Positions 12,849-29,601 of a DNA stretch of 29,601 nt are shown here, one piece after another. Source of the DNA: an uncultured Candidatus Saccharibacteria bacterium (lineage in GTDB: Bacteria > Patescibacteriota > Minisyncoccia > UBA6257 > Colwellbacteraceae); contig CAYMRK010000001.1 of the NCBI GenBank assembly GCA_964392905.1, positions 1 through 29,601 on the forward strand. Reading direction: 5' to 3'. The position numbers and the translations under genes are program-made. The notes beneath the pieces are model-generated. The model ran no database searches. It had not been told where the DNA came from and saw only the letters and a program-made list of their open reading frames with translations. Every line of letters begins with the position of its first letter. Position 1 is the stretch's first letter.

Positions 12849-13160
12849 TTACTTTACCTTTCCGAGGTCAATCTTCAGGGTAACCTGATTGCTATGGTTT
12901 GCCTTACCACCTGTGTTAATCGTGGTATCCTTGGCATTCACTGGGCGAACTTCCATAGTTCCCTCAGCAATGCGCATCTTGATTTTCCCACGCATAGCAA
13001 CAGCCTTAAGCTTATCAATGTCACCCTTCACAGTTGCTGCGGGGGCAGCTTTAACCATAGTGTCATCCATTGGGGCAATAGCATCAGCTGCTGCCAGCAG
13101 AGCATCAGCGTCCTTAGGATCAGCTGCCATTACGTCTTCTACTTTTTTACCACGGGCCAT
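12849..13160 (-). CDS. Hypothetical 103-aa protein between portal and scaffold, in frame with scaffold
   Basis: ATG overlaps the portal stop and has an RBS (AAAGGAG) upstream. Its TAA directly abuts the scaffold ATG. Confidence 0.65.
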   Translation of the reverse strand: MARGKKVEDVMAADPKDADALLAAADAIAPMDDTMVKAAPAATVKGDIDKLKAVAMRGKIKMRIAEGTMEVRPVNAKDTTINTGGKANHSNQVTLKIDLGKVK

Positions 13161-14704
13161 TATCTAGTTACTCCTTTGATTATATCTGGGCCAACTGCGT
13201 TAGCCATGGAATCCATCGCCTGCTGCTGTTGTTCTGCAGCAAGCTCCTCTGGTGTCTTAAAGAGACCAGCGATCTCAAGTCCTCTAAGCATTGCCATCTT
13301 CTTAGCCAGGGCGTCATACTTAATTAAGACAGCCATTTGAGGTACGCTCAGGATATCTCTGAGAAACATCTGCAGGTTATCGAGTTCCAAAGAACGCCCG
13401 AGTCCCTGCAGACCAGTGGTGACTATTGGTAACAGATCGTTAACATTAAGTGCACCATAGTCGCCCTTCTTAAAGAGCGCACGAATCAATAGAAAAGCCA
13501 TGGGCGACTGGATGTTTCTAGCCAGTGTACTGTAGGTACCACCCTTGGACTTCTCAAATTCATTAGCCATCATCCGAATCTCTTCGGCTGTGACACGCTC
13601 GGCTTCACGTCGGATAACCGAGGGCATCATGAAGGTTATGTCCAGCTCACGCTTGATACCCTCAAGGAACTGGATGAAGTTGCTCATGTCGTAGACCTTG
13701 TTAGCTTGGACTACGCCAACGTCTCCAGCTTCACCACTGATGATCTCAGTGTTTTCAGCGTCTGCTACATCCTGAGCCTTGGTCACACCGTTAGGTCTGA
13801 CGGTAAAGATTACTTTGGCTAGAGCCGTAGCGCTGTCTTTAACTATCTGGGTTCCACTCTCGTAGGTACGGATGTCGCCCAAGGACTCTTCTACAGGCCC
13901 ACGACCATAGTCTTCTCCAGCCACAAGTTCCCAATAAGGCACGTGAATCCAGAGACGGTCGTTGTTTTCCTTAATGCTGCTACTAGCGACTTCCGAAGAA
14001 CCAACGAACTTTTCTATAGTCCACTGGTTCCCATTGCGGAAAGCTCTGGTGTAGAGTGTGGTGTAGCCTTGAGCTATCTCCTGTTCACTTAGGGGCGGGA
14101 GCTTCTTTCGTGTCTCATCATCCACAGGGAACGTTTGTCTGAAGACAATCTCAAGCAGGTCACCACTGGCCGACCTAGTACATACCCAATCTTCCATGGG
14201 TATAAGCTCAAGTTTATCATCGACATCCAAGTAACAGGAGTCTCCAGCGACCACGAGCTGCTGAACGATCATCTGTAGTTTTTCCCTGTGTGTCTCAGTG
14301 TCCAACAGTATTGTACTGTTGTTTTCTATAGAGACAAAGGATTCCCTCAGGGCATCGTGCATCGTCTTATCGTTTGTCACCTGTATACCCTTGGACATAT
14401 TCCTAAGGTCTACGCTGGCGAGATCCAATTTGAAGAATGGGATACCCGGAGGAAACAGAATGAGGAGCAACTGTGAAACCAAGTTAGACACGAGACGTGC
14501 ACCATGGCTCTGGTGTGGATGCTCAATAGGCTGACCCGAGGTGTGTCCGCTAGGTGGCACCACTAATGGTTTGGTCAATCTAGAGCATTCCCTAGCTATC
14601 GTGAGTTTCTGCTCTTTGTACGTTCGGAGCTCGTTGAATCTTCTGGCTCCGGGCTGACTCACGTTGAACCCACGGAACTTATTGAAATTAAGGGATTGTT
14701 CCAT
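13160..14704 (-). CDS. gp8: Head-to-tail connector (portal), 514 aa
   Basis: QSHGARLVSNL.S.LLL.LFPP..PFFKL, GEDYGRGPVEE.LGD and RREAERVTAEEIR are canonical gp8 motifs. Confidence 0.96.
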   Translation of the reverse strand: MEQSLNFNKFRGFNVSQPGARRFNELRTYKEQKLTIARECSRLTKPLVVPPSGHTSGQPIEHPHQSHGARLVSNLVSQLLLILFPPGIPFFKLDLASVDLRNMSKGIQVTNDKTMHDALRESFVSIENNSTILLDTETHREKLQMIVQQLVVAGDSCYLDVDDKLELIPMEDWVCTRSASGDLLEIVFRQTFPVDDETRKKLPPLSEQEIAQGYTTLYTRAFRNGNQWTIEKFVGSSEVASSSIKENNDRLWIHVPYWELVAGEDYGRGPVEESLGDIRTYESGTQIVKDSATALAKVIFTVRPNGVTKAQDVADAENTEIISGEAGDVGVVQANKVYDMSNFIQFLEGIKRELDITFMMPSVIRREAERVTAEEIRMMANEFEKSKGGTYSTLARNIQSPMAFLLIRALFKKGDYGALNVNDLLPIVTTGLQGLGRSLELDNLQMFLRDILSVPQMAVLIKYDALAKKMAMLRGLEIAGLFKTPEELAAEQQQQAMDSMANAVGPDIIKGVTR

Positions 14705-14707
14705 AGG

Positions 14708-14992
14708 CTACTTTCCTTTTGGAGCACCGGGTATCAATAGGCCCGGTGAGACGTTAGGAACCGACAGCCCGAGGATCGCTTGGATACTTGGGGTTAAGTT
14801 CCTAGAGAACTGACTTATGTCACTAGAGGTACCCCTGGGTCTGTTGGGTCTCTCCGGTGGTTTTAACACAGGTAACGGGGGGAGCACCTTCTGTTGCGGG
14901 AGGTCTATGGTAGGCAGAGTTACCTTTGGGGTCTTGAAGAGAGACGTAAAGAACTCTCCTACCCCTTTGAATAGGTCTGAAATAAAGGACAT
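14708..14992 (-). CDS. Small virion/tail assembly protein candidate (gp7.3 position), Pro-rich
   Basis: Immediately upstream of portal, with RBS GGAGGAG. Function is inferred from position only. Confidence 0.5.
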   Translation of the reverse strand: MSFISDLFKGVGEFFTSLFKTPKVTLPTIDLPQQKVLPPLPVLKPPERPNRPRGTSSDISQFSRNLTPSIQAILGLSVPNVSPGLLIPGAPKGK

Positions 14993-14995
14993 AAC

Positions 14996-15148
14996 TTAAG
15001 TCTCCTCCATGATACGTTTGATTACAGTTATCACCTCCTGATTGCCGATGTCCTTAAGGACACGTTCAGGACTATAGTCTCTAAAGGACGGGAGTTTATT
15101 AGGGAACACCTGTTCCAAACGTTCCAGAAGTTCTCTTACAGATATCAT
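14996..15148 (-). CDS. 50-aa hypothetical protein (MISVRELLERLEQVFPNKLP...IGNQEVITVIKRIMEET)
   Basis: Hand-translated, below the track threshold. Its 3' end encodes the RBS of the next gene. The LE..FP..LP...G...V pattern recalls small proteins upstream of the portal in T7-like phages. Confidence 0.7.
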   Translation of the reverse strand: MISVRELLERLEQVFPNKLPSFRDYSPERVLKDIGNQEVITVIKRIMEET

Positions 15149-15306
15149 AAGTTACACCTTAGGTTACACTTTAGGTTATCTTTATTTTGTCCCCCCTTAA
15201 GAACTGAGTTCATGTCACAAGTCCTAAAGTCCGCTCTAGATGCACACTCTAGAAGTAACGCTAAGAAGTCACGAGCAGTTTGTTCATCAGCCTTAACCAC
15301 CTGCAT
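15145..15306 (-). CDS. Possible 53-aa ORF (MQVVKADEQTARDFLALLLECASRADF...)
   Basis: GGAG RBS 7 nt before ATG. It overlaps the exonuclease end and couples to the next gene by ATGA. Its 3' half runs through the regulatory repeat, so it may not be a real gene. Confidence 0.35.
   Translation of the reverse strand: MQVVKADEQTARDFLALLLECASRADFRTCDMNSVLKGGQNKDNLKCNLRCNL
15193..15218 (-). promoter_or_regulatory. Candidate phage RNAP promoter/operator, copy A (GTGACATGAACTCAGTTCTTAAGGGG)
   Basis: 22/26 identical to 25628-25653. Ends in TAAGGGG (compare T7 TATAGGG) and sits just upstream of the structural module. Confidence 0.6.
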
Positions 15307-16117
15307 CTTTTATCTCCTGAAGTAATCTCTGGTAGTTCTCTGGGAACTCTGTAGTCCACATTTCACTAGGTACTACAGGCTGCCCATTGATCTTGGCTAG
15401 ACAAAAGGTAGTCTTTAGGTCATCTACAGTAGCTCCGCAACTCTCATAGGTAAAGCGCACGGTGTTCCATAGATCTCTATAGTCAAAACCTTTGACCTCT
15501 ATATGTGTCAGGAGAATCTCTTCGGCCCTTTTACTTCCGATACTAGGGCACCCAGAGAAACCATCGGCCCCATCTCCAACGAGACATTGGTAGAATAGGG
15601 TGGCGTGGGCTGCATTACTATTGATCCACCTGAGTTCTCCAGAGAACGGATGGTAGTTCCATCCGGGTAGCGTATAGAAGTCTTTGTCATTAGACACTAC
15701 ACAGGTACTGCCGTCTTCTTTGTGGTGGTAGCCTATGATATCGTCGGTTTCTAGAGGCCTAATAGAGGAGACCACCAGCAGTTTATCTCTATACTCTTGT
15801 CTAAGCCAAGCCCTTAGAGTCCTGACGATACCTGGGGTCTCATCCCTATGTGCTTTGTACTGGGGGTAGAAGCTATAGCGAAAGCACCGGACACCGGGGT
15901 TCGCCAGCCCAAGTCTGAAGTCAGGAACCCCGGTGTCGTCCAGTAGAAACTGGAGCTTCTGTTGTATGGCGCACTTGGCAGCCTCAAGAGGATCAATAGG
16001 TTCGGCCACTTGTCCATCGAAGTCAACATCAGCTTTGTCGTGGTTCATCAGGCCATACCTATAGACCAAGGTATCACCGTCGATCAAGAGAAGTTCACAG
16101 GGCTTCTTGGGATTCAT
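15293..16117 (-). CDS. gp6: 5'-3' exonuclease (T7 gp6 / FEN-like), 274 aa
   Basis: LLIDGD, YKAHR, ETDDIIG, VSNDKDF and GDGADGFSGCPSIG motifs. Confidence 0.93.
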   Translation of the reverse strand: MNPKKPCELLLIDGDTLVYRYGLMNHDKADVDFDGQVAEPIDPLEAAKCAIQQKLQFLLDDTGVPDFRLGLANPGVRCFRYSFYPQYKAHRDETPGIVRTLRAWLRQEYRDKLLVVSSIRPLETDDIIGYHHKEDGSTCVVSNDKDFYTLPGWNYHPFSGELRWINSNAAHATLFYQCLVGDGADGFSGCPSIGSKRAEEILLTHIEVKGFDYRDLWNTVRFTYESCGATVDDLKTTFCLAKINGQPVVPSEMWTTEFPENYQRLLQEIKDAGG

Positions 16118-16389
16118 AGAGCCTCCTTTGGGCCTACGTATCCCGGAGGGGCGTAGGCTTTAGCTAGGGGACAATCCTCTGGTAGCAGAGGAGTATCCTT
16201 TAGGTGCTCGATAGGTCTCACGCACCAAGGGACACAGTCCCGGTACTTGTACACAGAACAGAGCTTTGTTTGAGTATTTAGGAATACGCAGGGCTTATGC
16301 GTGAAATGTACTACACCCTCTATGTAGACCTTATGGTAGCAGCATCGTCCACACTTTTGACATAGAACTTTAGGGTCTCGCTCGTTCAT
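16114..16389 (-). CDS. YkgJ/YcgN-like cysteine-cluster (CxxCxxCC) protein, about 91 aa
   Basis: CQKCGRCC...PCVFL...LCSVYKYR.C...LLPEDCP. Start moved to MNERD (16389) because of the ATGA overlap with the upstream stop. Confidence 0.75.
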   Translation of the reverse strand: MNERDPKVLCQKCGRCCYHKVYIEGVVHFTHKPCVFLNTQTKLCSVYKYRDCVPWCVRPIEHLKDTPLLPEDCPLAKAYAPPGYVGPKEAL

Positions 16390-16826
16390 AGGTTTCTCCA
16401 GTGGTCTAAGGAAGCCCAGAGCCCATAGTCTATAGGGTCTGGTGTAGACTCCCGCTCCTTTAGGATCTCTTGATGACACTTAAGACAATAGGTATATTCG
16501 TTTTCTTCATCAGAGCATTTGTCTTGATGCTTAATATAATATCTTACTAGTTTTTGCATCTGCTCGATCAGCTTGTCTTTCGCCGCAACCAGCTCGGTGA
16601 TACTCTGCCCCTCCGCACACAGGGAGGCCTGTTCTTCGATCAGGCTATCGTGTGCCCGTTCAAGAATGTCGGTTCTGGCCCGCGCCTCGGCAAGCTCGCG
16701 CTCAAGCTCCCTTGCTAACTTCCAAGCGTACGCCTCAGCCATGTCCTCATATTCAATTCCAGACCTGATAAGATTGTTCACTCTCTCTACTTCTGTATCT
16801 ACTATCGGAGTATCAGTGGGTTTCAC
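16386..16826 (-). CDS. Hypothetical coiled-coil protein, about 146 aa
   Basis: Track ORF 16386-16898. Likely start is GTG at 16826 near the polymerase stop, after an AAGGAAG RBS. Contains a heptad-like LARELERELAEAR segment and CxxC. Confidence 0.6.
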   Translation of the reverse strand: MKPTDTPIVDTEVERVNNLIRSGIEYEDMAEAYAWKLARELERELAEARARTDILERAHDSLIEEQASLCAEGQSITELVAAKDKLIEQMQKLVRYYIKHQDKCSDEENEYTYCLKCHQEILKERESTPDPIDYGLWASLDHWRNL

Positions 16827-18639
16827 TCCAGTTACTTCCTTCCTTAGCGCCTCCAGTAATCGGACAGCGCATCTTATAGTAGTCCGTAGCATGCGCAAAA
16901 GCGTCCTTAACTACGGACTTGAGAACCTTAACATGCTCAGGCCTAACTGCTAGCTGCCACTCATCGTGTACATGAAGCAGCCACTTATAGTCTACCTGAA
17001 GTTCTCTAAGTTTCCAGTCAAGATAGATCTCAGCCCGCTTCATTAGGATAGCTCCGGCTCTCTGGTTAAGCTCGTTAAGAATACTATGTTCTGATCTAAC
17101 TCGGAACATCTGTCCATCCAGATCAAAGAGGAACCCTCGCTTCTTGTTAGTTTCAACTAGAAGCTCCTTGAGTTGTACCAGAGCAGGAAGCCCTTTCTCA
17201 AGACGATTTTTTATCCATCGTCCTTTCTTAAGATTCAAGTTCTTATCCCAGCTCTTAGTAACTATTCGTCCAAGCTTAAGCAGCCCCGCTCCATAGACAT
17301 AAGCATAGAAGATTGTCTTACCGGGATCATCTCTATCGACACCAAGGGCTATAGCATTGCGCCAGTGTATATCATCCTTGTTCTCTTTGGTTCCATGGAT
17401 GGCTGCATGAGCGTAGGCTCCACCATCAAAAGGAAACAAGAAGTGACTCAAGGTTCTAAGTTCCAACTGGTCAGCATCTATGCCTACCATTGTGTAGCCT
17501 TCTGGTGGACTGAAGAGACTTCGGCATTCCTTACCAAGGTAAGCACGAGAACTAGGGACTTGGCCAAGGTTCGGACTATTGTGTGTCTGGCGTCGGGTAC
17601 CAGCGCCACAGCCCTGGACTTGACCGTGGATCTTACCCTCTGGTGTCACGAAGTTTAACCACGACTTTTCACCTGTGCTAACATAGGAGAGAATCTTAGA
17701 GGCCGTCTTGTACTTTCTAATGAGCGCCACTTCGGGCATGGTACCCATGTTCTCTAGGTCTTCTAAGACGTCATCATCCATCTGAGGGTTCCCCTTGTCT
17801 GTGAAGACTTCAGGTTCCCAGCCATACTTCTGGTTTAGACAATGGACTATGTGGTCTGTAGAGTTGGGGTTAAACTCTATGGTCTCCCAGACTTCATACC
17901 AGCCCCCCTTGACTCTCCCAAGTTTCTTGTTGTTAACCTTTGATATCGCACGCTTCTTGAGCTTCTGCCAAGGTGGGAAGCTTTTCTGAAGCTCTACCCT
18001 TAAGGTATCCAACTCATCAGCCAGCTGTACCGCAAGTTTCTCGGCACCTTTGACATCAAAGTTTACCCCTTGTTGCTCTTGTCTCACAAGTATTCCGGCG
18101 ACTTCCATCTCAAGATCAACAGCTGACTCACTTGTTGTCCAGCGTTTTAGTTCCTCATATAGAGCCTGAGTAACTACAGTGTCTTGGTTACAGTAGTCGA
18201 GCATCTCTGGACTGTAGTGTTGCCATGTTTCATCTGGAGCTGTGCCCTTTAGGATACCTAAACGATAGCCCCAAGCCCGGAGGCTATGGCTTCCAATGAG
18301 GTCTGGGGGAGTCGCTCGTCTCCAAGGTGCTTTACTCATGGTAAGCTGATAGACGTCAGCGGTTACCAACTGTGACCAGACCTTAGTATCCAAGGGTAAA
18401 CGCTTTGGTTGGAACCACGGATACAGCTTCTGTATCGCTGGTATATCGAAGGCAATAACATTATGTCCACAGATTCTGCGGTCAGTCTCATGAAGTCTGA
18501 GGAGACCAGCATGTACATCCTCTGGTGCGTAACGAACTGCTGTGTTATCCAGAGGATCACGAATGACTAGACAGTGGATCTTGGTTAGCTGGGGGATAAG
18601 GCCATCAGTTTCTATGTCAAAGATCAGAGGGGTTTCCAT
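16813..18639 (-). CDS. gp5: Family A DNA polymerase with 3'-5' exonuclease (T7 gp5-like)
   Basis: ExoI FDIETDG, ExoII GHNVIAFD, ExoIII YCNQD, motif A DADQLELR, motif B KTIFYAYVYGAG (Tyr at the T7 Y526 position), motif C HVHDEW. Likely start METP (18639) rather than 18687. Confidence 0.96.
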   Translation of the reverse strand: METPLIFDIETDGLIPQLTKIHCLVIRDPLDNTAVRYAPEDVHAGLLRLHETDRRICGHNVIAFDIPAIQKLYPWFQPKRLPLDTKVWSQLVTADVYQLTMSKAPWRRATPPDLIGSHSLRAWGYRLGILKGTAPDETWQHYSPEMLDYCNQDTVVTQALYEELKRWTTSESAVDLEMEVAGILVRQEQQGVNFDVKGAEKLAVQLADELDTLRVELQKSFPPWQKLKKRAISKVNNKKLGRVKGGWYEVWETIEFNPNSTDHIVHCLNQKYGWEPEVFTDKGNPQMDDDVLEDLENMGTMPEVALIRKYKTASKILSYVSTGEKSWLNFVTPEGKIHGQVQGCGAGTRRQTHNSPNLGQVPSSRAYLGKECRSLFSPPEGYTMVGIDADQLELRTLSHFLFPFDGGAYAHAAIHGTKENKDDIHWRNAIALGVDRDDPGKTIFYAYVYGAGLLKLGRIVTKSWDKNLNLKKGRWIKNRLEKGLPALVQLKELLVETNKKRGFLFDLDGQMFRVRSEHSILNELNQRAGAILMKRAEIYLDWKLRELQVDYKWLLHVHDEWQLAVRPEHVKVLKSVVKDAFAHATDYYKMRCPITGGAKEGSNWSETH

Positions 18640-18851
18640 AAGTGACACCACACTTCCCAAGCCCCCCGTGTCCACGGGTGTAACCATGGATTACGCTCGT
18701 GCTTTTCTATCTCTCTAGTAGTGCCTCTCCAGAGTTTTGGATGAGGCGAGTGAGACAACATAAACTCACCTCCACCTCTGGTTAGAACCCATGACTTGAA
18801 GGCTTCAAGCTTAGGGTCAGAAGTCTGAGGGGAAATCTGGAGGCGGCTCAT
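18624..18851 (-). CDS. Hypothetical 75-aa Trp-rich protein
   Basis: AAGGAG RBS upstream; fills the helicase-polymerase gap and overlaps both neighbours. Confidence 0.55.
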   Translation of the reverse strand: MSRLQISPQTSDPKLEAFKSWVLTRGGGEFMLSHSPHPKLWRGTTREIEKHERNPWLHPWTRGAWEVWCHLWKPL

Positions 18852-20406
18852 AAGCTTCTATCTCCTTCATTGTGAATGTTATAGGATCATACTCAAGAGG
18901 AATGACCGTGCCGGTGTACTCACCCATCGGCCTATTCTTCAGATCTCTTAGTAAGGGACGATTGCGTAGCTTAGGATCTTCGTGCTGATTGTCACGCTCA
19001 AGAGCAAACACGTGTTCGGCCCATTGCTTAAGCGCTCCCGCACCAAGTAGATCATCAAGGTGCACACGTCCTCCTTCTTCGTGTGGCTTACCATCAGCTT
19101 TTCGTAGGTGACTGATGACAAAGAGGGGAAACTCCAAAGAGGTCTGAAGCTTCCCTAGTTTTACAATTAGGTTACGGGTCTTCTGGTTTATGTCTCGATC
19201 GTACTGGTCGATGATAGCTGTAATGTGATCTAGGAATACTGCTTGGCATCCTAGGCCTTGTACCATGTAGCGGATGTGACTTAGGATTAGGTCTTCATCA
19301 AAGCCTATCTGTTTGTCATATAGTACCACACGGTCTTCTGTAATCAAGGTAGTAACAGCCTGTAGGCGCTCATCATCAGAGACCTCAGACTTAGCTGTGT
19401 GGAAATCCTTGCTGTGGAGTAGCGTCAGTAGTCCATTGAGTGTATTCTTGGAGGGCTCCTCAAGATGAATCACTCCTATCTTGAGCTTCTCTTTGTAGCA
19501 ATGGGCTTCCAGTTGTTTGAACAACGTTGTCTTACCTATACCACTGCCAGCAGTGATAAAAATAAGTCCAGGACATATACCGGGAGTTGTCTCATTGAGC
19601 GTGGGTATAGGCCAAGAGATCCCACGCTTTGGTTTTTCAGTGAGAATCTTGAAGTAATCCGCCGGATCTATAATGCCCCGAGGTTTCCACACTCGGGCAC
19701 CTTGGTAAGCCTCAAGCATTCCGGCGCGACCTCTGGATAACCATAGATCATTGAGGTCTTTGGTATCTGCGGGGAGGTTCATCACGCGGAATTTTGAGGA
19801 ACCGAGGGCTTGACATACCTCCTGTGTAGCTTTAGTTCCAGCCTCGTCGTTATCGAAACCAAGGTAAACCTCTTGGTATCTGTCGATCCAGTCAAGGTTA
19901 AACCGTAGAGTTTCTAATGCTCCCTGTGCACCACAAGGAACTGAGACCACATGGAAACCAACAGGACTAAGGGCCTCATAAGCACTGAGGGCATCAATTT
20001 CTCCCTCAGTTATTAGGAGCTTGAGACCACCGTGGTCACCATAGATTCTACGTCCAAAGAGCAGGTGCTTTAGCTGAACCTTAGGTGCCTCGGCACTGTA
20101 GACTCGGAAGTTTTTATCCTTATCGCGCACCTTTTGGAACAAGAGGTTACCTTCGTTATCAAAGTAGCAGGCGACCTGTAGGTTCGGGATGCAACCATAG
20201 GTAAACTTCCGACAAACTTCAGTGCTTAAGTTTCTGGTAGGCAGCGGTCGATACTCTAGGTCACCCAGTGATACGAGGGAACCACTGGGTGTAACCTTAG
20301 AGCTATCGCCACCAACGTCACCACAGCTGAAGCAATACGTGTGGTCTCCGTAGTCCGTTAGTGCGTCAGAGGACGCGCAGCTTGGACATGGCAAGTGCGT
20401 TCGCAT
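18817..20406 (-). CDS. gp4: Primase-helicase (T7 gp4-like), 529 aa
   Basis: Zn finger CPSC...YCFSC, TOPRIM ITEGEIDALS and GFDND, Walker A AGSGIGKTT, FLDHIT, VISHLRK, KNR arginine-finger region. Confidence 0.96.
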   Translation of the reverse strand: MRTHLPCPSCASSDALTDYGDHTYCFSCGDVGGDSSKVTPSGSLVSLGDLEYRPLPTRNLSTEVCRKFTYGCIPNLQVACYFDNEGNLLFQKVRDKDKNFRVYSAEAPKVQLKHLLFGRRIYGDHGGLKLLITEGEIDALSAYEALSPVGFHVVSVPCGAQGALETLRFNLDWIDRYQEVYLGFDNDEAGTKATQEVCQALGSSKFRVMNLPADTKDLNDLWLSRGRAGMLEAYQGARVWKPRGIIDPADYFKILTEKPKRGISWPIPTLNETTPGICPGLIFITAGSGIGKTTLFKQLEAHCYKEKLKIGVIHLEEPSKNTLNGLLTLLHSKDFHTAKSEVSDDERLQAVTTLITEDRVVLYDKQIGFDEDLILSHIRYMVQGLGCQAVFLDHITAIIDQYDRDINQKTRNLIVKLGKLQTSLEFPLFVISHLRKADGKPHEEGGRVHLDDLLGAGALKQWAEHVFALERDNQHEDPKLRNRPLLRDLKNRPMGEYTGTVIPLEYDPITFTMKEIEAYEPPPDFPSDF

Positions 20407-20626
20407 GAGCCACCTCGGCTTTCACGTCGATAACGGCTGGAGGATCTTGGATAACTATGTACTCGAAGTTCTTAGGAAGCCTTTGACAGCCGCTTCCATG
20501 AGTCTCCAGTTTTCCATTAGGTAAGACCTTGTAGATTTTATACCCAAGCTTAGACCTGCGGCAGACACCTGCCACTATTGCTCTAGGAGGAGGGGGGAGC
20601 TCACTTGCTTTAATCCAGGGGGTCAT
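20366..20626 (-). CDS. Hypothetical 86-aa protein
   Basis: ATGA-coupled to the upstream ORF; part of the tightly packed minus-strand series. Confidence 0.6.
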   Translation of the reverse strand: MTPWIKASELPPPPRAIVAGVCRRSKLGYKIYKVLPNGKLETHGSGCQRLPKNFEYIVIQDPPAVIDVKAEVAHANALAMSKLRVL

Positions 20627-20733
20627 TGGTTATCCTTTCGTTTCTTCTGACTATCAAGAAGCTTCTTTAGTAGCTTCCTACGATTCTTGCGGTTTAACTT
20701 AGGGAAGTCATCCGGGTGTAACTTTGGTTTCAT
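20623..20733 (-). CDS. 36-aa basic peptide (MKPKLHPDDFPKLNRKNRRKLLKKLLDSQKKRKDNQ)
   Basis: 3' part of track ORF 20623-20859. ATG at 20733 overlaps the FmdB-like stop (TGATG) and its stop overlaps the next ATG. Confidence 0.5.
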   Translation of the reverse strand: MKPKLHPDDFPKLNRKNRRKLLKKLLDSQKKRKDNQ

Positions 20734-20957
20734 CAGAAACTTATGTCCTCTCTGTCGATTCCTCGGTCGCCCTTGTTCGTGGTGACACCCATAGTCCCAC
20801 GCTTCTGCTTGAACTTGTGTGGTGGGGCGCCCACGAGTTTCTTCATGGGGTAATCGCACTGGTCACAGGTAACAGAAGGGGTACCAGAGATGCTATGGAA
20901 AAGGTCGGTCTCATGGAGACAATCGGGGTTAGTGCAGCGATAGGTGTACGTGGGCAT
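20733..20957 (-). CDS. FmdB-family zinc ribbon protein, 74 aa
   Basis: MPTYTYRC...C.H....F.S......TCDQC..PMKKLV matches the FmdB (CxxC-CxxC) pattern; RBS TAAGGAG. Confidence 0.8.
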   Translation of the reverse strand: MPTYTYRCTNPDCLHETDLFHSISGTPSVTCDQCDYPMKKLVGAPPHKFKQKRGTMGVTTNKGDRGIDREDISF

Positions 20958-20966
20958 TGGTTCTCC

Positions 20967-21083
20967 TTAGTACCTACAAAAGTAGTCCATCAGGCCTACG
21001 ATTACAAGAGTAGTCACAGCTACACCCGTGACTACGACCACTGTATAACAATAGATTTTATCAAGAAGTGTTCTATTGTCCAT
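20967..21083 (-). CDS. 38-aa single-TM membrane peptide (MDNRTLLDKIYCYTVVVVTGVAVTTLVIVGLMDYFCRY)
   Basis: Hand-translated. TAATG-coupled to the upstream gene; its stop runs straight into the TAAGGAG RBS of the next gene; about 20 hydrophobic residues in a row. Confidence 0.65.
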   Translation of the reverse strand: MDNRTLLDKIYCYTVVVVTGVAVTTLVIVGLMDYFCRY

Positions 21084-21346
21084 TAGTTAATAGCATCCTT
21101 TGAAGCTTCGGTACCATAGGTACCGACTATCCCAAGGAGTTCCCCCAAGCGCCCATTGACTAGACCAAAGAAGCCAAAGACATCCTCCTTTTTATCAAGA
21201 GTTTCAATGGCATTCCCATTAGCATCCACCGCGGAGACATCAATCTCGAAGTTTCCGGTGCCATCGTTAGCTCTTGTCAGAGCTACTGTCGCTGTCAGCT
21301 TGGTTCCCAGATCGTTTACCACGGTTACGGTTGTTACGTGTTTCAT
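21083..21346 (-). CDS. Hypothetical 87-aa protein
   Basis: AAAGGAG RBS; beta-rich N-terminal half. Confidence 0.65.
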   Translation of the reverse strand: MKHVTTVTVVNDLGTKLTATVALTRANDGTGNFEIDVSAVDANGNAIETLDKKEDVFGFFGLVNGRLGELLGIVGTYGTEASKDAIN

Positions 21347-21426
21347 TCTTTCGTTGCTCCTTTAATCTCTTTTGAATCAGTCGTTTAATCGCTGGTACAC
21401 CCAATAGTTCAGGAGGAATCAATGGG

Positions 21427-21732
21427 CTACGCATGAAGTACACCTAATGCTAGATTCTTAATGTCAGCCATGGTTCTCTTAAACATCGCAAGTTCCTTTG
21501 AGAGCTCAAGGTACTCAAGCCCCTTTGCTTCAAGGCGCTGCTTAAGGCCAACGACTTCGGCATTGGCGTATTCTAGAGCTTTCTCAGCGGCTATCCTCTG
21601 TCTGTCCGTAATGACTATAGTGTCCTTAAGAGAGGCTATAGTATCTTGAAGCTCCTTGATCTTAGATGCAATAGGGCAACTGTTGTGCATATCAGCCACA
21701 GATATTCTTATGTCAGTCATTCGTACCACCAC
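21427..21732 (-). CDS. Hypothetical coiled-coil protein, 101 aa
   Basis: Heptad-like composition; overlaps the endonuclease end. The start could be the second Met (MTDIR). Confidence 0.55.
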   Translation of the reverse strand: MVVRMTDIRISVADMHNSCPIASKIKELQDTIASLKDTIVITDRQRIAAEKALEYANAEVVGLKQRLEAKGLEYLELSKELAMFKRTMADIKNLALGVLHA

Positions 21733-22127
21733 TCCTCAGGTATTGATCGTCCAATGTGATACTTGAACCCGTGCTTGACGCACCAGTCCGAGTACCGTGT
21801 CTTACTCCGGGGGTTGATCTTATTGTTAGCCATGAAGACAAAGCGAATGTCCTTCTCTGGATTCGCCATCTTAACCCGAAGCATCTTGGTTCTATCGATA
21901 CTATCGAAGAAGCCCTTGGCCTCTACGTAGATACCATTGGGCAATAGGAAGTCTGGGATATACTCAAGCATGTAGCCCAAGTGTTTATCCTTGGGCTCAT
22001 ACTCGAAGGATAATCCTCGGCGTTCCATGTCGGATACAAGCGCTGCCTCAAAGGTGGAACGCTTGCCATTCCGAGGACGTGCCGAGGCCCACCACGGCTT
22101 ACGTCCATAGACTCTTGGTTTAGGCAT
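21717..22127 (-). CDS. gp3: Endonuclease I / Holliday junction resolvase (T7 gp3-like)
   Basis: RSTFE, FEYE, YIPDFLLPNGIYVEAKG (PD-(D/E)xK), DRTKM, DIRFVF, YSDWCVKHGF. Confidence 0.95.
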   Translation of the reverse strand: MPKPRVYGRKPWWASARPRNGKRSTFEAALVSDMERRGLSFEYEPKDKHLGYMLEYIPDFLLPNGIYVEAKGFFDSIDRTKMLRVKMANPEKDIRFVFMANNKINPRSKTRYSDWCVKHGFKYHIGRSIPEEWWYE

Positions 22128-22365
22128 TAGTTACCTCTATGTCTAAGGTAGCACCTGAGTCTACTACTACAAGGATGTTTTGCCATCCAAAAGAATCAGG
22201 ATGCCAACCACTATTACTTTTCTCCGATAAATCCCATGCAAACTCTGGAGATACTTTGATTACCCCTTTCCCGCACACTTTTGTGACTCCCCATGTTCCA
22301 ATAGGCATGTCCTCTAGTGTGTACTCTCTAACTTCATGATCCTTACGTGTCTTAACTTTAATCAT
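22120..22365 (-). CDS. Hypothetical 81-aa protein
   Basis: TAAGGAG RBS; fills the SSB-endonuclease gap. Confidence 0.65.
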   Translation of the reverse strand: MIKVKTRKDHEVREYTLEDMPIGTWGVTKVCGKGVIKVSPEFAWDLSEKSNSGWHPDSFGWQNILVVVDSGATLDIEVTNA

Positions 22366-22375
22366 AGATTACTCC

Positions 22376-23002
22376 TTAGAAATCTGAAGTTCCATCGCTA
22401 TCGAAGTCCGGGGCTTCTGGTGCAGCCACGAACCCTCCGGGTACACTGGTGAAATCAGCAGCACATGAGGCACCTTCGACAATAGAAATCAACTGTACCT
22501 TCTCAAGGTATAGCACTAGACCAACAGTCTTACGCTGGGTATCAATAGACTTCCTGAAGCTCATGACGATACGACCAGTGGAACCAGAGAACGCACGACC
22601 AGCGGCAGCATCAGACATGATGTTATTCGCTGAGTCTTTAATCACTGGTTTATTCTTAGAAGTAGCCTTCAGCAGGTAGAATCCAGTTTCGTTACCGTCG
22701 TCATCTTCTTCAGCTTTGCAGATGTCCTTGATCCTATAGGACTTGCGGTCTTTGGTAATCGTTGGTATCAGTTCGTTACCGACAGTATCATTAAGATCGT
22801 TGAGAGCCTTGAGGTAGGCAGCAACTACTGGATCTTTAGAGTCCAAGCGTAGGGTAACGGAGTACTTCGGTGGAGCAAAGCTGCCATCGGGAAGCTTGTA
22901 GCGATCAGGTGTCACGATATGAATGTAAGGCATAGGAGCAGCAGGTGTCACCTGAAGCTTGGGCACATTAACGTAGTCGCTGGTTCCAGAATTCTTAGCC
23001 AT
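22376..23002 (-). CDS. gp2.5: Single-stranded DNA-binding protein (T7 gp2.5-like)
   Basis: OB-fold-like KYSVTLRL, LKATSKNKP.IKDS, LYLEKVQLI; acidic tail ending in Phe (DFDSDGTSDF); synteny. Confidence 0.85.
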   Translation of the reverse strand: MAKNSGTSDYVNVPKLQVTPAAPMPYIHIVTPDRYKLPDGSFAPPKYSVTLRLDSKDPVVAAYLKALNDLNDTVGNELIPTITKDRKSYRIKDICKAEEDDDGNETGFYLLKATSKNKPVIKDSANNIMSDAAAGRAFSGSTGRIVMSFRKSIDTQRKTVGLVLYLEKVQLISIVEGASCAADFTSVPGGFVAAPEAPDFDSDGTSDF

Positions 23003-23181
23003 TAGTTTTTACCTCCAAAGATATTATCGGTCAGAGCTATAGCAGCACAGACGAGACCAGTGAGCCAAAAGGCTATAGGTGCAAGGTTCACAGGGGCAGC
23101 TGGTGACAGGATGGCGCAGTCGTTCAACATAAGTACACAGACCATAATAATGAGGGCAAGGGTTACATTGGTACTCTTCAC
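23002..23181 (-). CDS. 59-aa two-TM membrane protein (GTG start; MKSTNVTLALIIMVCVLML...IAFWLTGLVCAAIALTDNIFGGKN)
   Basis: Hand-translated. GAGGAG RBS overlaps the RNAP stop; TAATG-coupled to SSB; two hydrophobic segments. Confidence 0.7.
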   Translation of the reverse strand: MKSTNVTLALIIMVCVLMLNDCAILSPAAPVNLAPIAFWLTGLVCAAIALTDNIFGGKN

Positions 23182-23190
23182 AAATTCTCC

Positions 23191-25578
23191 TCATGCAAAC
23201 GCATAGATAGCCTCCCGGATTTCTCCGGTTAGCAAAGTTCCCTTCTGGGGAACAGGTATCGGAAGTTCTTCTCCGGTCTTAGACTTGAAGTCTAGCTTGA
23301 TAGCCTCTGTTATATCGAAGGTATCATACAGATCAGCAAAAGCCTCAGCTATTAACTGCTGACCACAGCGGGCAACATCTGGAGCCGTCAGACCGTAAGA
23401 GTCGTGGATTGTCACAAAGGGAATTCCCTTTGGAAGTCTAGAAACCACCATGGCCAAGTGAGTGGCATCCATGGAATGGGTAACATTAGGGCTATATGCA
23501 CTTAAGTTTCTCCTTACATCTTGTTTGTCCGTGGGGACGCGGTAGTTAATAAAGACCGTCTGATTCTCCAGTGCTACCTGCTTTGTCTTGGTCTTTGGTA
23601 GACGCTGGATTACCTTGAAGCCGTCAGGTAGAAGCCATGAGATCTCAAGGTTCCTATCCATGTACTCCTTGGCTACATCACGATACCATTGCATTAGATC
23701 CGCAGTGGTTCCAAGCAATCCCATGATACAGCTATGGTTATACTCCCTTAGCTCAACAGCATGTACTTTGTCCTCCTTGCTCAAGAAGTTGTTAGGGCTT
23801 GCATTCAAGAGTTCCTCTTGTATCTGCTGACCCATGCCCATGATACTTACGTTATATGGAGTAGTCATGGTATTACGTTTGACTAGCTTGCGTGTAACCT
23901 TTCCTTTCCAATAGGAATCTTCAGGTATCACGGACTCCACACGTTCAAGGACTTTTGTGTAGATGTCGCTTGGTTTACTCATAGGAACCAAGGACACCAG
24001 TTCTGCTGTGCCTCGGTCTCTAACTGTAGTAGCCAAGTGCTGTAGACCATTGCATCTTCCGTCTCGGTTCACTGGAAGCTGGGTGTAGTCCTGCTTACCA
24101 AGGACAATACTTGTGTACTCTATACACCAAGCCAAGAAGCACCATGGTTTATCAGCATCAGTCCACCACTGATACTCGAAAGGATCAACAGCACACTGCA
24201 GAATTCTATTGTGGTTCACTCGAATAAAGGACACACGATCATCAAAGGAAACCTTGTCGTTACCCATAAGGTTAGACCCCTGAATCATATACCAACGCCA
24301 TGCTTCAGAGTCTTTAGGAGATAGCGGTGTACGTTGGTGGAATCTCAAGAGGCTACGTGCCACATCGTTACCCTGAGGATTCAGGGAGGTAGCGATAGAA
24401 TACACTCGGCCTCTATAGTCTAGACGATAGGGAAACCAGATGGCTTCATACTGAGCGAACTTCTTAGCTATGCTCATGGTTCTTAAGAACGCTAGTCGTT
24501 GGCCTACAGTGCGACTGTGGTAAAAGGTTCCGTAGGCTATAGCTGCCTGCTGTTTCCACTCATGAACCACGTCAGGCCTTGTAGCTTCCAGTGTTTTGTA
24601 CTCCACGTAGGACTTCCAAGGCTTCTCTGGTATCACGATATCCACGTCATTCAAGGGAACTGACTTATGGTTAGTCTCATAAGCGTGCTTAAGATGCCGA
24701 AGTATCTCTTGGTTTATTTCCCAAGGCACAGCCCCTTGTTTATTGAGGATCTCTAGGCGGCTACCCAAGGCGCCCTCGGCTTCCAGCTGTATAGCTGTAG
24801 ACTCTTGATGTGTGATAGCCAAAGAACGTAGCGTTAGGTAGCCCCCGTCATCTATGGTAGTCCAAGGCTTCGGAGGACAGACCATTGGCATATACATTGG
24901 GTGCATAGAGGCCATCTTCTCGATGCTACTCAAGACATACCTCATGACCTTTTCTGTCGGATACAATAGGTTCATTGTCTTGGTACCTATTGTTTCCGGG
25001 TGCACCTCAAAGAGACCAGAAGTTTCTATAGCTCCTTTGAGCATAGGATAGCCCACGCTCGTCAGTTCACTGGTAGTTCCACGGAGATCTGTGTGTTTAA
25101 GAGTGTCCTTGTACCATCGTATAGTTCTGTAGTAATAGCGTTTGTTCTTATTTTCTAAAGATTCTACCATGTGGGCGTAGGCTTTAGGCGACTTCTTCTT
25201 TAGAACCACATAGTTGAAGTGATCCAAGAGCAAGTGCCCAAGCTTTATAGACAAGGAAGATATACAGTTAAGGCTCTCGGACTTCTTAAAGTGTGCACGT
25301 CCTGAGAAAGCTGCGTCCATAAGGCACTTAAGAACTATGACCGAGATTTCCGTAGGTGTAAGACATAAGAAGATACCCTTTTGCACATTGCTATTGAAGG
25401 TCGTAGACTTAGCAAAAGTCCTTACGTAGTCTTCCATAGCTGTCATAGCTTTACATAAAATGTAGTTTCCTATGTCTGTGTAACTGAAGGCTGTCTCTGA
25501 ATAGGTTCCTTTGTACTTGGAAACACCAATGTCTAGCCACTGTTGTTCTAAGGCTTCTTGGGTTTCTCTTAAGTCCAT
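23191..25578 (-). CDS. gp1: Single-subunit DNA-directed RNA polymerase (T7 gp1-like), 795 aa
   Basis: DYRGRVY, LNPQGND, motif A DGRCNGLQH, motif B RKLVKRNTMTTPY, PNVTHSMDATH, motif C IHDSY; RBS TAAGGAG. Confidence 0.97.
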   Translation of the reverse strand: MDLRETQEALEQQWLDIGVSKYKGTYSETAFSYTDIGNYILCKAMTAMEDYVRTFAKSTTFNSNVQKGIFLCLTPTEISVIVLKCLMDAAFSGRAHFKKSESLNCISSLSIKLGHLLLDHFNYVVLKKKSPKAYAHMVESLENKNKRYYYRTIRWYKDTLKHTDLRGTTSELTSVGYPMLKGAIETSGLFEVHPETIGTKTMNLLYPTEKVMRYVLSSIEKMASMHPMYMPMVCPPKPWTTIDDGGYLTLRSLAITHQESTAIQLEAEGALGSRLEILNKQGAVPWEINQEILRHLKHAYETNHKSVPLNDVDIVIPEKPWKSYVEYKTLEATRPDVVHEWKQQAAIAYGTFYHSRTVGQRLAFLRTMSIAKKFAQYEAIWFPYRLDYRGRVYSIATSLNPQGNDVARSLLRFHQRTPLSPKDSEAWRWYMIQGSNLMGNDKVSFDDRVSFIRVNHNRILQCAVDPFEYQWWTDADKPWCFLAWCIEYTSIVLGKQDYTQLPVNRDGRCNGLQHLATTVRDRGTAELVSLVPMSKPSDIYTKVLERVESVIPEDSYWKGKVTRKLVKRNTMTTPYNVSIMGMGQQIQEELLNASPNNFLSKEDKVHAVELREYNHSCIMGLLGTTADLMQWYRDVAKEYMDRNLEISWLLPDGFKVIQRLPKTKTKQVALENQTVFINYRVPTDKQDVRRNLSAYSPNVTHSMDATHLAMVVSRLPKGIPFVTIHDSYGLTAPDVARCGQQLIAEAFADLYDTFDITEAIKLDFKSKTGEELPIPVPQKGTLLTGEIREAIYAFA

Positions 25579-25627
25579 CTTAAGACTCCTTAAGTTTTTA
25601 GTTTTTACTTTAGTTTTAACTTAGGTT
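25579..25627 (-). repeat. AT-rich leader with short AAC(C)TAA(A/G) direct repeats
   Basis: Minus strand reads AACCTAAGTTAAAACTAAAGTAAAAACTAAAAACTTAAGGAG. Related units AACCTAAAGTGT-AACCTAAGGTGT-AACTTA occur at about 15148-15180. Confidence 0.55.
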
Positions 25628-25653
25628 CCCCTTAGGAACTTAGTTCGTGACAC
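25628..25653 (-). promoter_or_regulatory. Candidate phage RNAP promoter/operator, copy B (GTGTCACGAACTAAGTTCCTAAGGGG)
   Basis: 22/26 identical to 15193-15218. Lies in the only sizeable intergenic gap (25579-25707), upstream of RNAP. Confidence 0.6.
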
Positions 25654-25707
25654 TCGCGCTTTGGACGCGGGTTTGCGAAAGTTTCGTTTGGAGCTTTGGC
25701 GTACAAC

Positions 25708-25962: not shown

Positions 25963-26387
25963 GGGACATCCTCCTCATCGGAGGATACCAAGGCCACAAT
26001 AGAATCCACCAGTTCAGTCTCAAGATACTCAGGATAATCAGCCCCCCAGTCATCCTTGAACAGGAGATCAGCTTCAGCCTTAGCCAACAGGCCAGCCACA
26101 GTTTCTCTGATGTTAGCCATGGCTTCTGAGAACGCGAGGAATCCAGCGTCACGTGCTGCCAAGCGCTCAGAAACAACAGGCCAAGCATCACCACGGATAA
26201 CCATGGATACCAGTTGCTTAGGTTTATCATAGGCGAGCTTAGTAAGGTATCGTCGGAGTTCGCTGGTGGACACTTTGTTAGGCACGAGAGCCTTTCGTAT
26301 CTGGGGTTCCAGCTGCTCCAGTGTCTTGTGCGCCACACGGCGAAGGTTTTTCATTATGAATCGAACGTGCGTTAAGGTGTACTTCAT
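25959..26387 (-). CDS. Hypothetical helical protein, 142 aa, acidic C-terminus
   Basis: RBS ATGGAGGAG supplied by the P2 tail; ATGA-coupled to P1. Confidence 0.7.
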   Translation of the reverse strand: MKYTLTHVRFIMKNLRRVAHKTLEQLEPQIRKALVPNKVSTSELRRYLTKLAYDKPKQLVSMVIRGDAWPVVSERLAARDAGFLAFSEAMANIRETVAGLLAKAEADLLFKDDWGADYPEYLETELVDSIVALVSSDEEDVP

Positions 26388-26390
26388 TGG

Positions 26391-26645
26391 TTACTCCTCC
26401 ATTAGGTTAGTCTTAAGAACTACCGGACGAACAAAGCGTCCCCAATCGTAAGCAAGCCAGACTCTATCAAGAGCCCCCAGTTCTTCATCAGAACTGAAAA
26501 AGCGCACAAAGAGAGCCTGCCCACTATCGTCCTCTGCGGATATCACACGTATACGATAGTACTTAGTGTACTGTGGAACATAGCACCCCAGAGCGCCGAG
26601 GACTATGTAGAGCTCCTGTCCTGGGCGAATACTTCGGACATCCAT
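26391..26645 (-). CDS. SH3-like paralogue P2, 84 aa, ends VLKTNLMEE
   Basis: IRPGQELY N-terminus, same length and C-terminal motif as the other paralogues; more divergent core. Confidence 0.75.
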   Translation of the reverse strand: MDVRSIRPGQELYIVLGALGCYVPQYTKYYRIRVISAEDDSGQALFVRFFSSDEELGALDRVWLAYDWGRFVRPVVLKTNLMEE

Positions 26646-26648
26646 AGG

Positions 26649-26897
26649 CTACTCCTCCATTAGATTACGCTTGAGTATTGCACTCATGAGGCAAGAGACT
26701 GGGAACTCTTGAGCGTCGTCGTATTCAAAGAGTATGTATCCCCTAGACTCTGGTCGGTTTACCCTGTAGACGTTATCCACAGCATCCGAGTCAAAGTGTA
26801 CCCCAACATAAAGCATAGTTTTATATACCACAGTCCCACAGTGTCTTCCGGGTACTAAATAGAGCCTGTCCGTGTAAACTTTCATGCCTACGTGCAT
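26649..26897 (-). CDS. SH3-like paralogue P3, 82 aa, ends ILKRNLMEE
   Basis: HVGMKV...GTVV...VGVHFDS...RGY..F aligns with P1 along its length; RBS GGAGGAG. Confidence 0.8.
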   Translation of the reverse strand: MHVGMKVYTDRLYLVPGRHCGTVVYKTMLYVGVHFDSDAVDNVYRVNRPESRGYILFEYDDAQEFPVSCLMSAILKRNLMEE

Positions 26898-29139: not shown

Positions 29140-29391
29140 TCAGTCCTCCATTAAGTTAGTCTTTAGAATGACAGGCCTAAACCATGTCTCGGGATAATCA
29201 CCAAGGCACCAACGGGAATAAGTAAAAGATAGGGGATTAGAGCCCCTATAACCAATAGCGTACCACCAAGATCCCTGTTCAGAATTACCGGCTCGTAATC
29301 TAGTTTCGCCTACAATGTCAAGGATTTTTCCTTTGTACCACCGGTTATCTCTCGTTCTGAACACTATGCGTTGTCCGATAGTAAAAATCAT
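29140..29391 (-). CDS. SH3-like paralogue P4, 83 aa, ends ILKTNLMED
   Basis: Start moved to MIFTIGQRIV (ATG 29389-29391, overlapping the upstream TGA), which matches the 82-84 aa length of the other paralogues. FTIGQRIV...YKGKILDI. Confidence 0.75.
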   Translation of the reverse strand: MIFTIGQRIVFRTRDNRWYKGKILDIVGETRLRAGNSEQGSWWYAIGYRGSNPLSFTYSRWCLGDYPETWFRPVILKTNLMED

Positions 29392-29540
29392 AGGCCACTC
29401 CCTAGAACCCCAATACAAAAGCCTATCAGAAACAGGCAGATGACAAGGGTGTAGCAGGCGATGAAGCTGGTGGTATCCAGGGTATACCATAGTCCCAACG
29501 TAGGAACCAGAAGAAGGAGCGTTAGGATCAGAAGTTGCAT
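29388..29540 (-). CDS. 50-aa two-TM membrane protein (MQLLILTLLLLVPTLGLWYTLDTTSFIACYTLVICLFLIGFCIGVLGSGL)
   Basis: Hand-translated. RBS ATGGAGG from the P5 tail; ATGA-coupled to P4; almost entirely hydrophobic. Confidence 0.75.
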   Translation of the reverse strand: MQLLILTLLLLVPTLGLWYTLDTTSFIACYTLVICLFLIGFCIGVLGSGL

Positions 29541-29541
29541 C

Positions 29542-29601
29542 TTAAGCCTCCATTAGGTTAGTCTTGAGCACACATGACATGAGGTACTTTGGATTCCAGA
29601 T
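29542..29601 (-). CDS. 3' end of paralogue P5 (…IWNPKYLMSCVLKTNLMEA*), truncated by window edge
   Basis: Hand translation of the last 60 nt gives the same C-terminal motif; LMS..LK.NLME matches P3 closely. Confidence 0.75.
   Translation of the reverse strand: MWNPKYLMSCVLKTNLMEA

Follow-up and report, generated by a model that had tools for sequence, protein, structure and literature searches.

Paired elements that may serve as promoters for the RNA polymerase of uncultured T7-like podophages, with one copy retained in a ribonucleotide reductase relic

What role does a 26-bp sequence play that occurs twice in an uncultured phage genome, once ahead of the gene for the phage's own RNA polymerase (RNAP) and once ahead of its structural genes? 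The stretch of DNA analyzed here (the window; 29,601 nt, 48% GC) comes from a T7-like podophage of subsurface or rock metagenomes and covers its genome incompletely; all genes, and likewise both elements, lie on the minus strand. Copy 1 (GTGTCACGAACTAAGTTCCTAAGGGG, 25653→25628) ends 49 nt before the ATG (25578) of a gene for a 795-aa single-subunit RNAP (23191..25578, minus strand; Pfam RNA_pol 8.5e-81 plus RPOL_N), which is proposed to read the element. Copy 2 (GTGACATGAACTCAGTTCTTAAGGGG, 15218→15193) is located ahead of the portal/capsid module. The two 26-mers are identical at 22/26 positions, and both contain GAACT-N-AGTTC and end in TAAGGGG. The first-pass annotation had quoted both sequences exactly and had given their placement, about 50 nt before the RNAP gene and ahead of the structural genes, correctly. 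It had found only two copies by eye, and a search allowing ≤3 mismatches likewise returned two in the window; the whole bin (464 kb in total) also contains only two. An all-against-all test yielded four direct 26-mer pairs matching at ≥22/26, compared with none in 10 shuffled windows; three of the four come from an unrelated family of paralogue-tail repeats, the other being the twin. The pair is therefore unusual, yet by itself only moderately significant.

The first-pass annotation missed that copy 2 is not intergenic but lies inside a 53-codon open reading frame (15145..15306, minus strand), which is the relic of a gene for a B12-type ribonucleotide reductase (RNR) and retains the equivalent of RNR residues ~274–312. 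By BLASTP, 18/39 residues are identical to the RNR of one relative, L089 (E = 6e-7). The GEPG motif of the relic has decayed, everything from NPCGE onward is deleted, and only ~150 nt of the gene remain around the element. Contigs from runs of two studies span the RNR-deleted junction, and the deletion is thus real in independent runs. The last intact DNA-metabolism gene ahead of the relic encodes a 5'-3' exonuclease (15293..16117, minus strand; Pfam 5_3_exonuc_N). On the other side, the relic's stop codon overlaps the start of a conserved 50-aa gene (ATGA; 14996..15148, minus strand), the first gene 3' of the element, whose homologues come after the RNR gene in L086 and L089. A 94-aa gene and the portal gene follow (13160..14992, minus strand; Pfam Head-tail_con 7.9e-40; syntenic with L085, L086 and L089), and a promoter at copy 2 would serve the structural module that begins with them. 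In overlaid DNA contigs, neither element contained a variant, although the 14 variants found in 11.5 kb are too few to gauge constraint.

Scanning viral contigs with the RNAP protein alone returned no relative; the relatives required an alignment query, and L089 was found through a portal cluster member. The element is present at corresponding places in these genomes, in gene orientation throughout. Homologous but genome-specific copies lie ~50–75 nt ahead of the RNAP ATG in L003, L004, L006-8, L009, L010 and L092, and these non-coding copies are conserved among RNAPs that have diverged to 42% identity. A second site lies within the B12-type RNR gene, identified from Pfam, between GEPG and NPCGE and just upstream of the structural genes; copy 2 of the window can be aligned codon by codon with the elements inside the RNR genes of L086, L089, L085, L004, L006 and L010. 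The relatives add a third copy to the two of the window, at the 3' end of an Amidase_3 gene in L003 and L006, next to the end of the genome and to an extended non-coding stretch. The window contig lacks this genome-end region, and an amidase query against the window's own bin gave no match. A metagenome scan added only short contigs of the clade. Four primase-anchored contigs supplied further RNR copies and no further pre-RNAP/RNR pairs; every one of them breaks between the RNAP and primase genes.

The core is built alike in the copies: an AA(G/C)T(C/A)A-like hexamer is followed by a genome-specific stretch, then by (C/T)TAA or ACA, and then by a G (sometimes A) at the presumptive start. The hexamer begins ~14 nt before the first G, a spacing of 14 in most copies and of 13 in L006, in its pre-RNAP and RNR copies alike. 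In the subclade of the window and L003, the conserved part reaches about −22. Several copies begin with GGGAGA(A) or GGAGAA, which resembles the initially transcribed sequence of T7. In the window, the TAA|GGGG junction is compatible with a G start just after the motif; transcription from copy 1 is predicted to begin (+1) at the initial G of its GGGG run (~25631), and from copy 2 at that of a GGGGGG run (~15196), with the ATG of the next gene 48 nt on.

Within genomes, the copies vary together. In each of five genomes, the copy before the RNAP gene and that in RNR are closer to each other than to the copies of other genomes, and the third copies also match their own genome. When the 150 nt ahead of the RNAP gene were compared with a codon-aligned 28-nt RNR segment, own-genome pairing ranked alone in first place among 120 permutations whatever the window size, in a test with n = 5 genomes only, one of which combines L003 and L089, contigs from different samples that share an identical portal protein. 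An anchored version of the test likewise placed own-genome pairing first. The co-variation is most easily seen in the triplet after TCA, which reads GTT/GTT, ACC/ACC or CGC/CGC at the two sites. A conserved K/R-S-x-L protein motif accounts in part for the RNR-internal copies. In the RNR genes of three close relatives (85–90% DNA identity), however, the longest invariant run measures 76 nt and has the element inside it, the second-longest being 47 nt, and these sequences indicate that the RNR-internal element is under constraint beyond coding. Between the RNAPs of the window and L003, differences are no more concentrated in the specificity loop than over the protein as a whole.

Taken together, these results support a model in which both elements are promoters of the phage's own single-subunit RNAP, initiating in the G run, a reading to which we assign a probability of roughly 0.8. 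The first-pass annotation had left open a choice between promoter and operator, and it is the promoter half that the comparative evidence favors. The genome encodes a T7-type RNAP, and its genes and elements share one strand. The motif falls in the ~17–26-bp range of a phage promoter family and is repeated in gene direction at the heads of modules, with two copies in the window and three positions in relatives; it is specific to each genome and co-varies with the genome of the cognate polymerase. The promoter reading is further favored by the conserved positions, the G-run start with GGGAGA(A)/GGAGAA in several copies, and the retention of the element after RNR deletion. A sigma-70 scan found no sigma-70-like site at either element. 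The kind of element is already well known and its sequence is new; most likely, the family represents a new sequence specificity common to an uncultured clade of T7-like phages. The sequences and positions of the elements, their conservation and co-variation and the relic status of the RNR fragment were observed directly, and from them we infer the RNAP as reader, the exact +1 positions and a feedback loop.

In the proposed sequence of events, host RNAP would read through the early genes and yield the first phage RNAP. The phage enzyme would then start at copy 1 and transcribe its own gene and the DNA-metabolism genes, and the comparative evidence supports the positive autoregulation suggested for this copy in the first-pass annotation. 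Starts at copy 2 would serve the 50-aa and 94-aa genes and the portal, capsid and tail genes. In relatives, this late promoter would be written into the RNR reading frame, whereas the window phage has deleted RNR on both sides of it and kept a stub that would bear the promoter. A third copy is expected by the amidase gene and genome end, in the part missing from the contig. Between copy 1 and the RNAP gene lies an AT-rich leader (25579..25627, minus strand; 24% GC) that contains repeats of the AACCTAAG/AAACTAAAG type as well as a ribosome-binding site, TAAGGAG, and similar leaders were seen in all relatives. RNA folds of the element flanks and leaders were not significant, and an Rfam search of the window returned one tRNA only, away from both elements. 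Among the sequencing runs listed with the phage, there was no RNA run.

It is instructive to compare this arrangement with known phage promoters. Those of classes II and III in T7, T3 and SP6 are 23 bp long, span −17 to +6 and read TATA|GGGAGA around the start. The elements described here resemble them in gene-strand orientation, placement before modules, the G-run start and a homologous single-subunit RNAP as the presumed reader, and relatives add GGGAGA(A)/GGAGAA copies and leaders resembling that of T7 phi1.1B. They differ in that one copy sits within the coding frame of an enzyme and in that there are two to three copies, as opposed to the 18 reported for T7 (PMC11880802). The best ungapped match to T7 phi1.1A/B covers 9–12 of 23 positions, which most shuffles also reach. 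We therefore rejected membership in the narrow T7-like promoter class (consensus TAATACGACTCACTATAGGGAGA), the similarity being no better than chance.

A parallel in architecture is cyanophage Syn5, whose RNAP promoters (ATTGGGCACCCGTAA; Zhu et al. 2013, cited in PMC3950665 and PMC11880802) also occur in very few copies. In Syn5 the promoters number only two: one lies within a gene, the other immediately follows the terminase gene, and each initiates at a G after TAA. The resemblance extends to one copy in coding sequence, one close to the right genome end, behind the last large late gene, and, as predicted here, an initiating G that follows TAA. Nevertheless, the motif sequences are unrelated, only the TAA|G junction being held in common, and the elements do not match the 15-bp Syn5 sequence despite the similar two-to-three-copy architecture; the Syn5-like class comprises only nine genomes in PMC11880802. 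The internal Syn5 copy lies within the RNAP gene and thus cannot give a full-length RNAP mRNA, whereas here one copy is upstream of the RNAP gene and the other is in the RNR gene. For the upstream copy, LUZ100 offers a precedent: a mapped phage promoter, phi1, lies directly upstream of its RNAP gene, and a feedback loop is proposed (PMC10134795). The predicted promoter here is likewise immediately 5' of the phage RNAP gene, a position that would make RNAP expression self-amplifying after initial host read-through. Differences from LUZ100 are that no regulator or integrase was found here, that the promoters are predicted from sequence, and that an entire uncultured clade shares the layout. Both Syn5 and LUZ100 thus show the same logic as the promoter reading.

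Among the alternatives, the one that survives best, although we consider it unlikely, is that initiation is not the main role of the elements, which would instead function in replication as an origin, in packaging or recombination, or as a target of another DNA-binding protein, or would have been homogenized by gene conversion. Concerted evolution could also come about through gene conversion or another genome-encoded DNA-binding protein, and within-genome similarity by itself cannot separate conversion from a shared reader. The primary origin of T7 consists of the phi1.1A/B promoters and an AT-rich stretch, which the 24%-GC leader after copy 1 resembles, and in the relatives the third copy has the end of the genome and a long stretch of non-coding DNA beside it. 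However, the origin and packaging functions of T7 depend on phage promoters, so another cis function would mostly add to the promoter reading. Strict gene-strand orientation, fixed spacing to the G run and placement at module boundaries also fit a promoter better, and gene conversion alone leaves the retained stub after RNR loss unexplained.

Less probable still is an operator, on which a dimeric repressor bound to GAACT-N-AGTTC would gate the RNAP and late genes of a temperate T7-like phage, either by itself or superimposed on a promoter, an arrangement proposed for MarR sites in LUZ100-type phages. Among temperate T7-like phages there is precedent for a phage promoter that is flanked by an operator and located ahead of the RNAP gene (PMC10134795). 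The perfect 5+5 inverted repeat is kept in both window copies, which differ at its center; it is real but statistically weak, given a chance of ~0.12 (by arithmetic) that the four mismatches would miss its 10 positions. The palindrome is absent from the homologous copies of L003, L085, L086, L089, L004, L006, L009, L010 and L092. The temperate lifestyle floated in the first-pass annotation also found no counterpart in gene content: Pfam and PHROGs revealed no integrase and no HTH or MarR-type repressor among the window's open reading frames, and the gene lists of L003 and L004 contain none either. The early region of the contig is incomplete, and a regulator gene could lie off it. Least probable of all, and already disfavored, is that the elements have no function, the late copy being RNR coding sequence in decay and the copy before the RNAP gene resembling it by chance or through hitch-hiking: a 22/26 pair is not extremely rare in 29.6 kb (roughly 0.1–0.3 expected from the all-against-all test and arithmetic) and the K/R-S-x-L motif explains part of the RNR signal, but own-genome pairing, matching copies at a conserved third place, the 76-nt invariant run and the conservation of non-coding copies across distant RNAPs all argue against it.

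Returning to the promoter reading, we lean slightly towards its full form, in which several features hold jointly across the clade. Three promoters, at the genome end, before the RNAP gene and ahead of the late genes, would form a circuit, with the late one lying where the RNR frame is most conserved; the specificity of the polymerase would drift jointly with an RNR codon; the promoter would have preserved the RNR relic; and the copy ahead of the RNAP gene would turn that gene into a natural autogene, in phages that look strictly lytic. Our analysis provides a concrete and testable predicted RNAP–promoter pair from a deep-branching uncultured subsurface phage clade, with a polymerase that shares no more than 30% identity with that of any cultured phage (top match 29%). 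The natural specificity variants of the relatives (GTT, ACC and CGC triplets) could supply orthogonal pairs for synthetic biology, and the stub suggests that part of a lost gene can persist through the cis-element it carries. According to PMC11880802, current promoter-mining pipelines gave no definite prediction for 741/1757 RNAP-encoding phage genomes; comparing paralogous copies across relatives can reveal low-copy phage promoters that repeat-counting methods miss. Finally, a search with a 55-nt "Syn5 template" matched T7, because the transcribed part of that template is the T7 phi1.1B leader.

We predict, with good support from sequence comparison, that the two 26-nt elements are promoters for the phage's own single-subunit RNA polymerase (RNAP). 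A phage RNAP promoter is an already known kind of element; its specificity here would be new. The copy ahead of the RNAP gene, GTGTCACGAACTAAGTTCCTAAGGGG (25653 to 25628), and the late copy, GTGACATGAACTCAGTTCTTAAGGGG (15218 to 15193), both on the minus strand, are identical at 22 of 26 positions, and each contains GAACT-N-AGTTC and ends in TAAGGGG, as the first-pass annotation had described. Its by-eye count of two also held, as a scan allowing up to three mismatches found no further copy in the window. In an unbiased all-against-all comparison of 26-mers, the window contained four direct pairs matching at 22 or more positions, whereas ten shuffled windows contained none; three of the four belong to a paralogue-tail repeat at 26.4–29.6 kb, and the fourth is the twin. 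Taken alone, the twin is unusual but not overwhelming, and the case for the element rests on its context and on relatives. The paralogue-tail repeat itself (..CTCCTCCATTAGGTTAGTCTT.., plus strand) lies at small early gene junctions (26383–26416, 26641–26666, 29140–29165 and 29540–29565).

The contig covers part of a T7-like podophage genome. Every gene is on the minus strand, in an order running from early genes through RNAP (25578–23191), SSB and endonuclease, primase/helicase, DNA polymerase, exonuclease (16117–15293), two small genes, portal (14704–13160), scaffold and capsid, a tRNA gene, and tail tube and nozzle to the internal virion proteins. The phage was found in subsurface and rock metagenomes, and the closest match to its RNAP in 50,697 phage records has 29% identity. 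The contig (C1) was binned with a 464-kb, 72-contig genome (completeness rating 78.8%), so far a putative host link; the only element copies in this bin (G000) are the two in the window, and the remaining phage genome was not found there. The tRNA gene between the capsid and tail-tube genes (10947–11030, minus strand; Rfam RF00005, 62.5 bits) has no element copy near it.

A loose pattern (GTG..AY.AA ... GGG) returned few matches in close relatives: besides the two window copies, L003:9916, L003:1811 and one in each B12-type ribonucleotide reductase (RNR) gene of contigs L085, L086, L089, L090 and L091. The L003:9916 copy precedes the RNAP gene, the L003:1811 copy directly follows the Amidase_3 stop, where a long non-coding region begins, and the RNR copies fall in the interval from the GEPG motif to the NPCGE motif, in codon register with the window's late copy. 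More distant relatives carry their own versions at corresponding places: TTAAGTAACGCTTTAAGG before RNAP and TTAAGTCACGCTTACAGG in RNR in L004, AAGTCAGGCCTTAAGG and AGGTCTGTGCTTAAGC in L010 (no amidase-end copy was seen in either), and TTAGCTCAGTCCTAAGGG, TTAGGTCAGCTCTAAGGA and, at the end of an amidase gene supported by Pfam, TTAGGTCAGTTGTAAGGA in L006. L009 has two copies (at L009:1520 and L009:3799), of which one, AGTGCCCTCTCTAGGA, precedes the RNAP gene and the other, AGTGGCCTCTCTAGGA, falls within that gene's 3' end, the latter recalling the Syn5 promoter located inside the Syn5 RNAP gene. The pre-RNAP copy of L092, AAGTCAACCCTTAC, is nearly identical to RNR-internal sequence of L174. Every copy is oriented with the gene strand. 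The first-pass annotation had held that a lack of conservation in relatives would speak against the element; copies instead recur there at conserved places, and the window pair is probably part of a scheme of three promoters that an uncultured clade has conserved. The long non-coding regions after the amidase-end copies (L003:1811–3642 and L006:776–2090) are rich in short direct repeats (GGTAACTATAGG, CTTAAGG and GTGACTAAGTG..CCTGTGG). They probably represent the genome terminus together with the start of the early region. The RNR of L175 (L175:7576–9606) has a ~58-residue insertion exactly between GDPG and NPCGE, the element's site in other phages, and that contig also carries three DNA methyltransferase genes (MT-A70, N6_N4_Mtase and DNA_methylase).

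The late copy sits within a 53-codon ORF (15306–15145) that, judged by its sequence, is a relic of the RNR gene. Its residues 4–42 match residues 274–312 of the relatives' RNR at 18 of 39 positions (E = 6e-7), and the DNA could also be aligned. Between the exonuclease gene and a conserved ~50-aa gene, L085, L086, L089, L090, L091, L004, L006, L010, L173, L174 and L176 have an RNR (580–630 aa; Pfam Ribonuc_red_lgC, with a B12-RNR insertion domain additionally in L004). In the window only ~150 nt remain, with GEPG decayed to DFRT and NPCGE and everything beyond it lost, and an ATGA overlap fuses the relic to the next gene, the conserved one of 50 aa (15148–14996). This junction is spanned in contigs that come from runs of two studies, so the deletion is not an assembly error. 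The late promoter would be embedded in the RNR gene of relatives and persist in the window within the relic.

The copies also change together. We compared the 150 nt upstream of RNAP with a codon-defined 28-nt RNR segment at the best ungapped offset, with no hand-picked anchor, in only five genomes (the window, L003 with L089, L004, L006 and L010). L003 and L089, contigs from different samples with identical portal protein, were treated as one genome; 26 of 27 positions are shared between the L003 end copy and the RNR copy of L089. Own-genome pairing was the single best of 120 permutations at window sizes of 16, 20, 24 and 28, and a hand-anchored version left this unchanged. The triplet following the TCA-like core differs from genome to genome but is the same in a genome's two copies (window, GTT/GTT; L003/L089, ACC/ACC; L004, CGC/CGC). 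Spacing from the hexamer to the first G is 14 for the majority of copies, whereas L006 has 13 in its pre-RNAP copy and its RNR copy alike. Such tracking is not expected of paralogous copies that diverge independently; it requires a shared reader encoded in the same genome, or gene conversion. The RNR genes of L089, L090 and L085 have 85–90% DNA identity, and their longest three-way identical run, 76 nt, includes the element (next longest, 47 nt). The Pfam-detected RNR stretch (residues 272–353) coincides with this run, so conservation is partly at the protein level, although the lack of synonymous change across ~25 codons goes beyond what coding accounts for.

The first-pass annotation had left two readings, a phage promoter of new specificity or a dimeric-repressor operator in a temperate T7-like phage; positions, co-variation and orientation favor the former. 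GAACT-N-AGTTC is unique to the window phage; in every relative the homologous stretch lacks an inverted repeat. The window genes yielded neither an integrase nor a MarR or HTH protein. The gene for a lineage-specific dimeric regulator may lie off the contig, because the early region extends beyond it, but with the palindrome missing from relatives and no regulator found in the window, such an operator is very improbable. We take the palindrome for a chance product of the specificity region in this lineage. With just 1 nt between its 5-bp arms, it cannot fold into a hairpin.

Several further features are consistent with promoters for the phage RNAP. The elements stand at module boundaries in gene orientation, an A-rich tetramer and then a G run form their 3' ends, and several relatives' copies start GGGAGA(A) or GGAGAA, resembling T7 initially transcribed sequences. 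The predicted 5' UTRs are 53 nt (pre-RNAP copy) and 48 nt (late copy), each with a TAAGG-type ribosome-binding site. A sigma-70 scan found no sigma-70-like site overlapping either window copy. The elements are no more T7 promoter-like than shuffled sequence and do not match the Syn5 motif; they fall outside both narrow motif classes. What we claim is that they would function as single-subunit RNAP promoters do and belong with these in the broad sense. The Syn5 RNAP, the one marine-type enzyme studied biochemically, has only two promoters, at 4929 inside the RNAP gene and at 44797, close to the right end and six bases past the terminase gene, both with initiation at G after TAA (PMC3950665, PMC11880802). 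In LUZ100, a phage-specific promoter was mapped directly upstream of the RNAP gene and a positive feedback loop proposed (PMC10134795). The window and L003 RNAPs have different residues within the specificity loop, at a density no greater than elsewhere in the protein.

Immediately upstream of the pre-RNAP copy is a conserved GC-rich block, CGCG..N7-9..CGCGAG (window 25654–25672, minus strand; L003:9897–9915), for which only a 5-bp hairpin, not significant, is possible. The leaders behind both window copies (25579–25627 and 15149–15192) and behind all relatives' copies carry AACCTAAG / AAACTTAAG-type repeats, which resemble the T7 phi1.1B leader (GGAGAACCTTAAGGTTTAACTTTAAG). These leaders may enhance translation, direct processing or act as an origin-like signal. 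Across the 29.6-kb window there are 33 CTTAAG sites, against ~7 expected.
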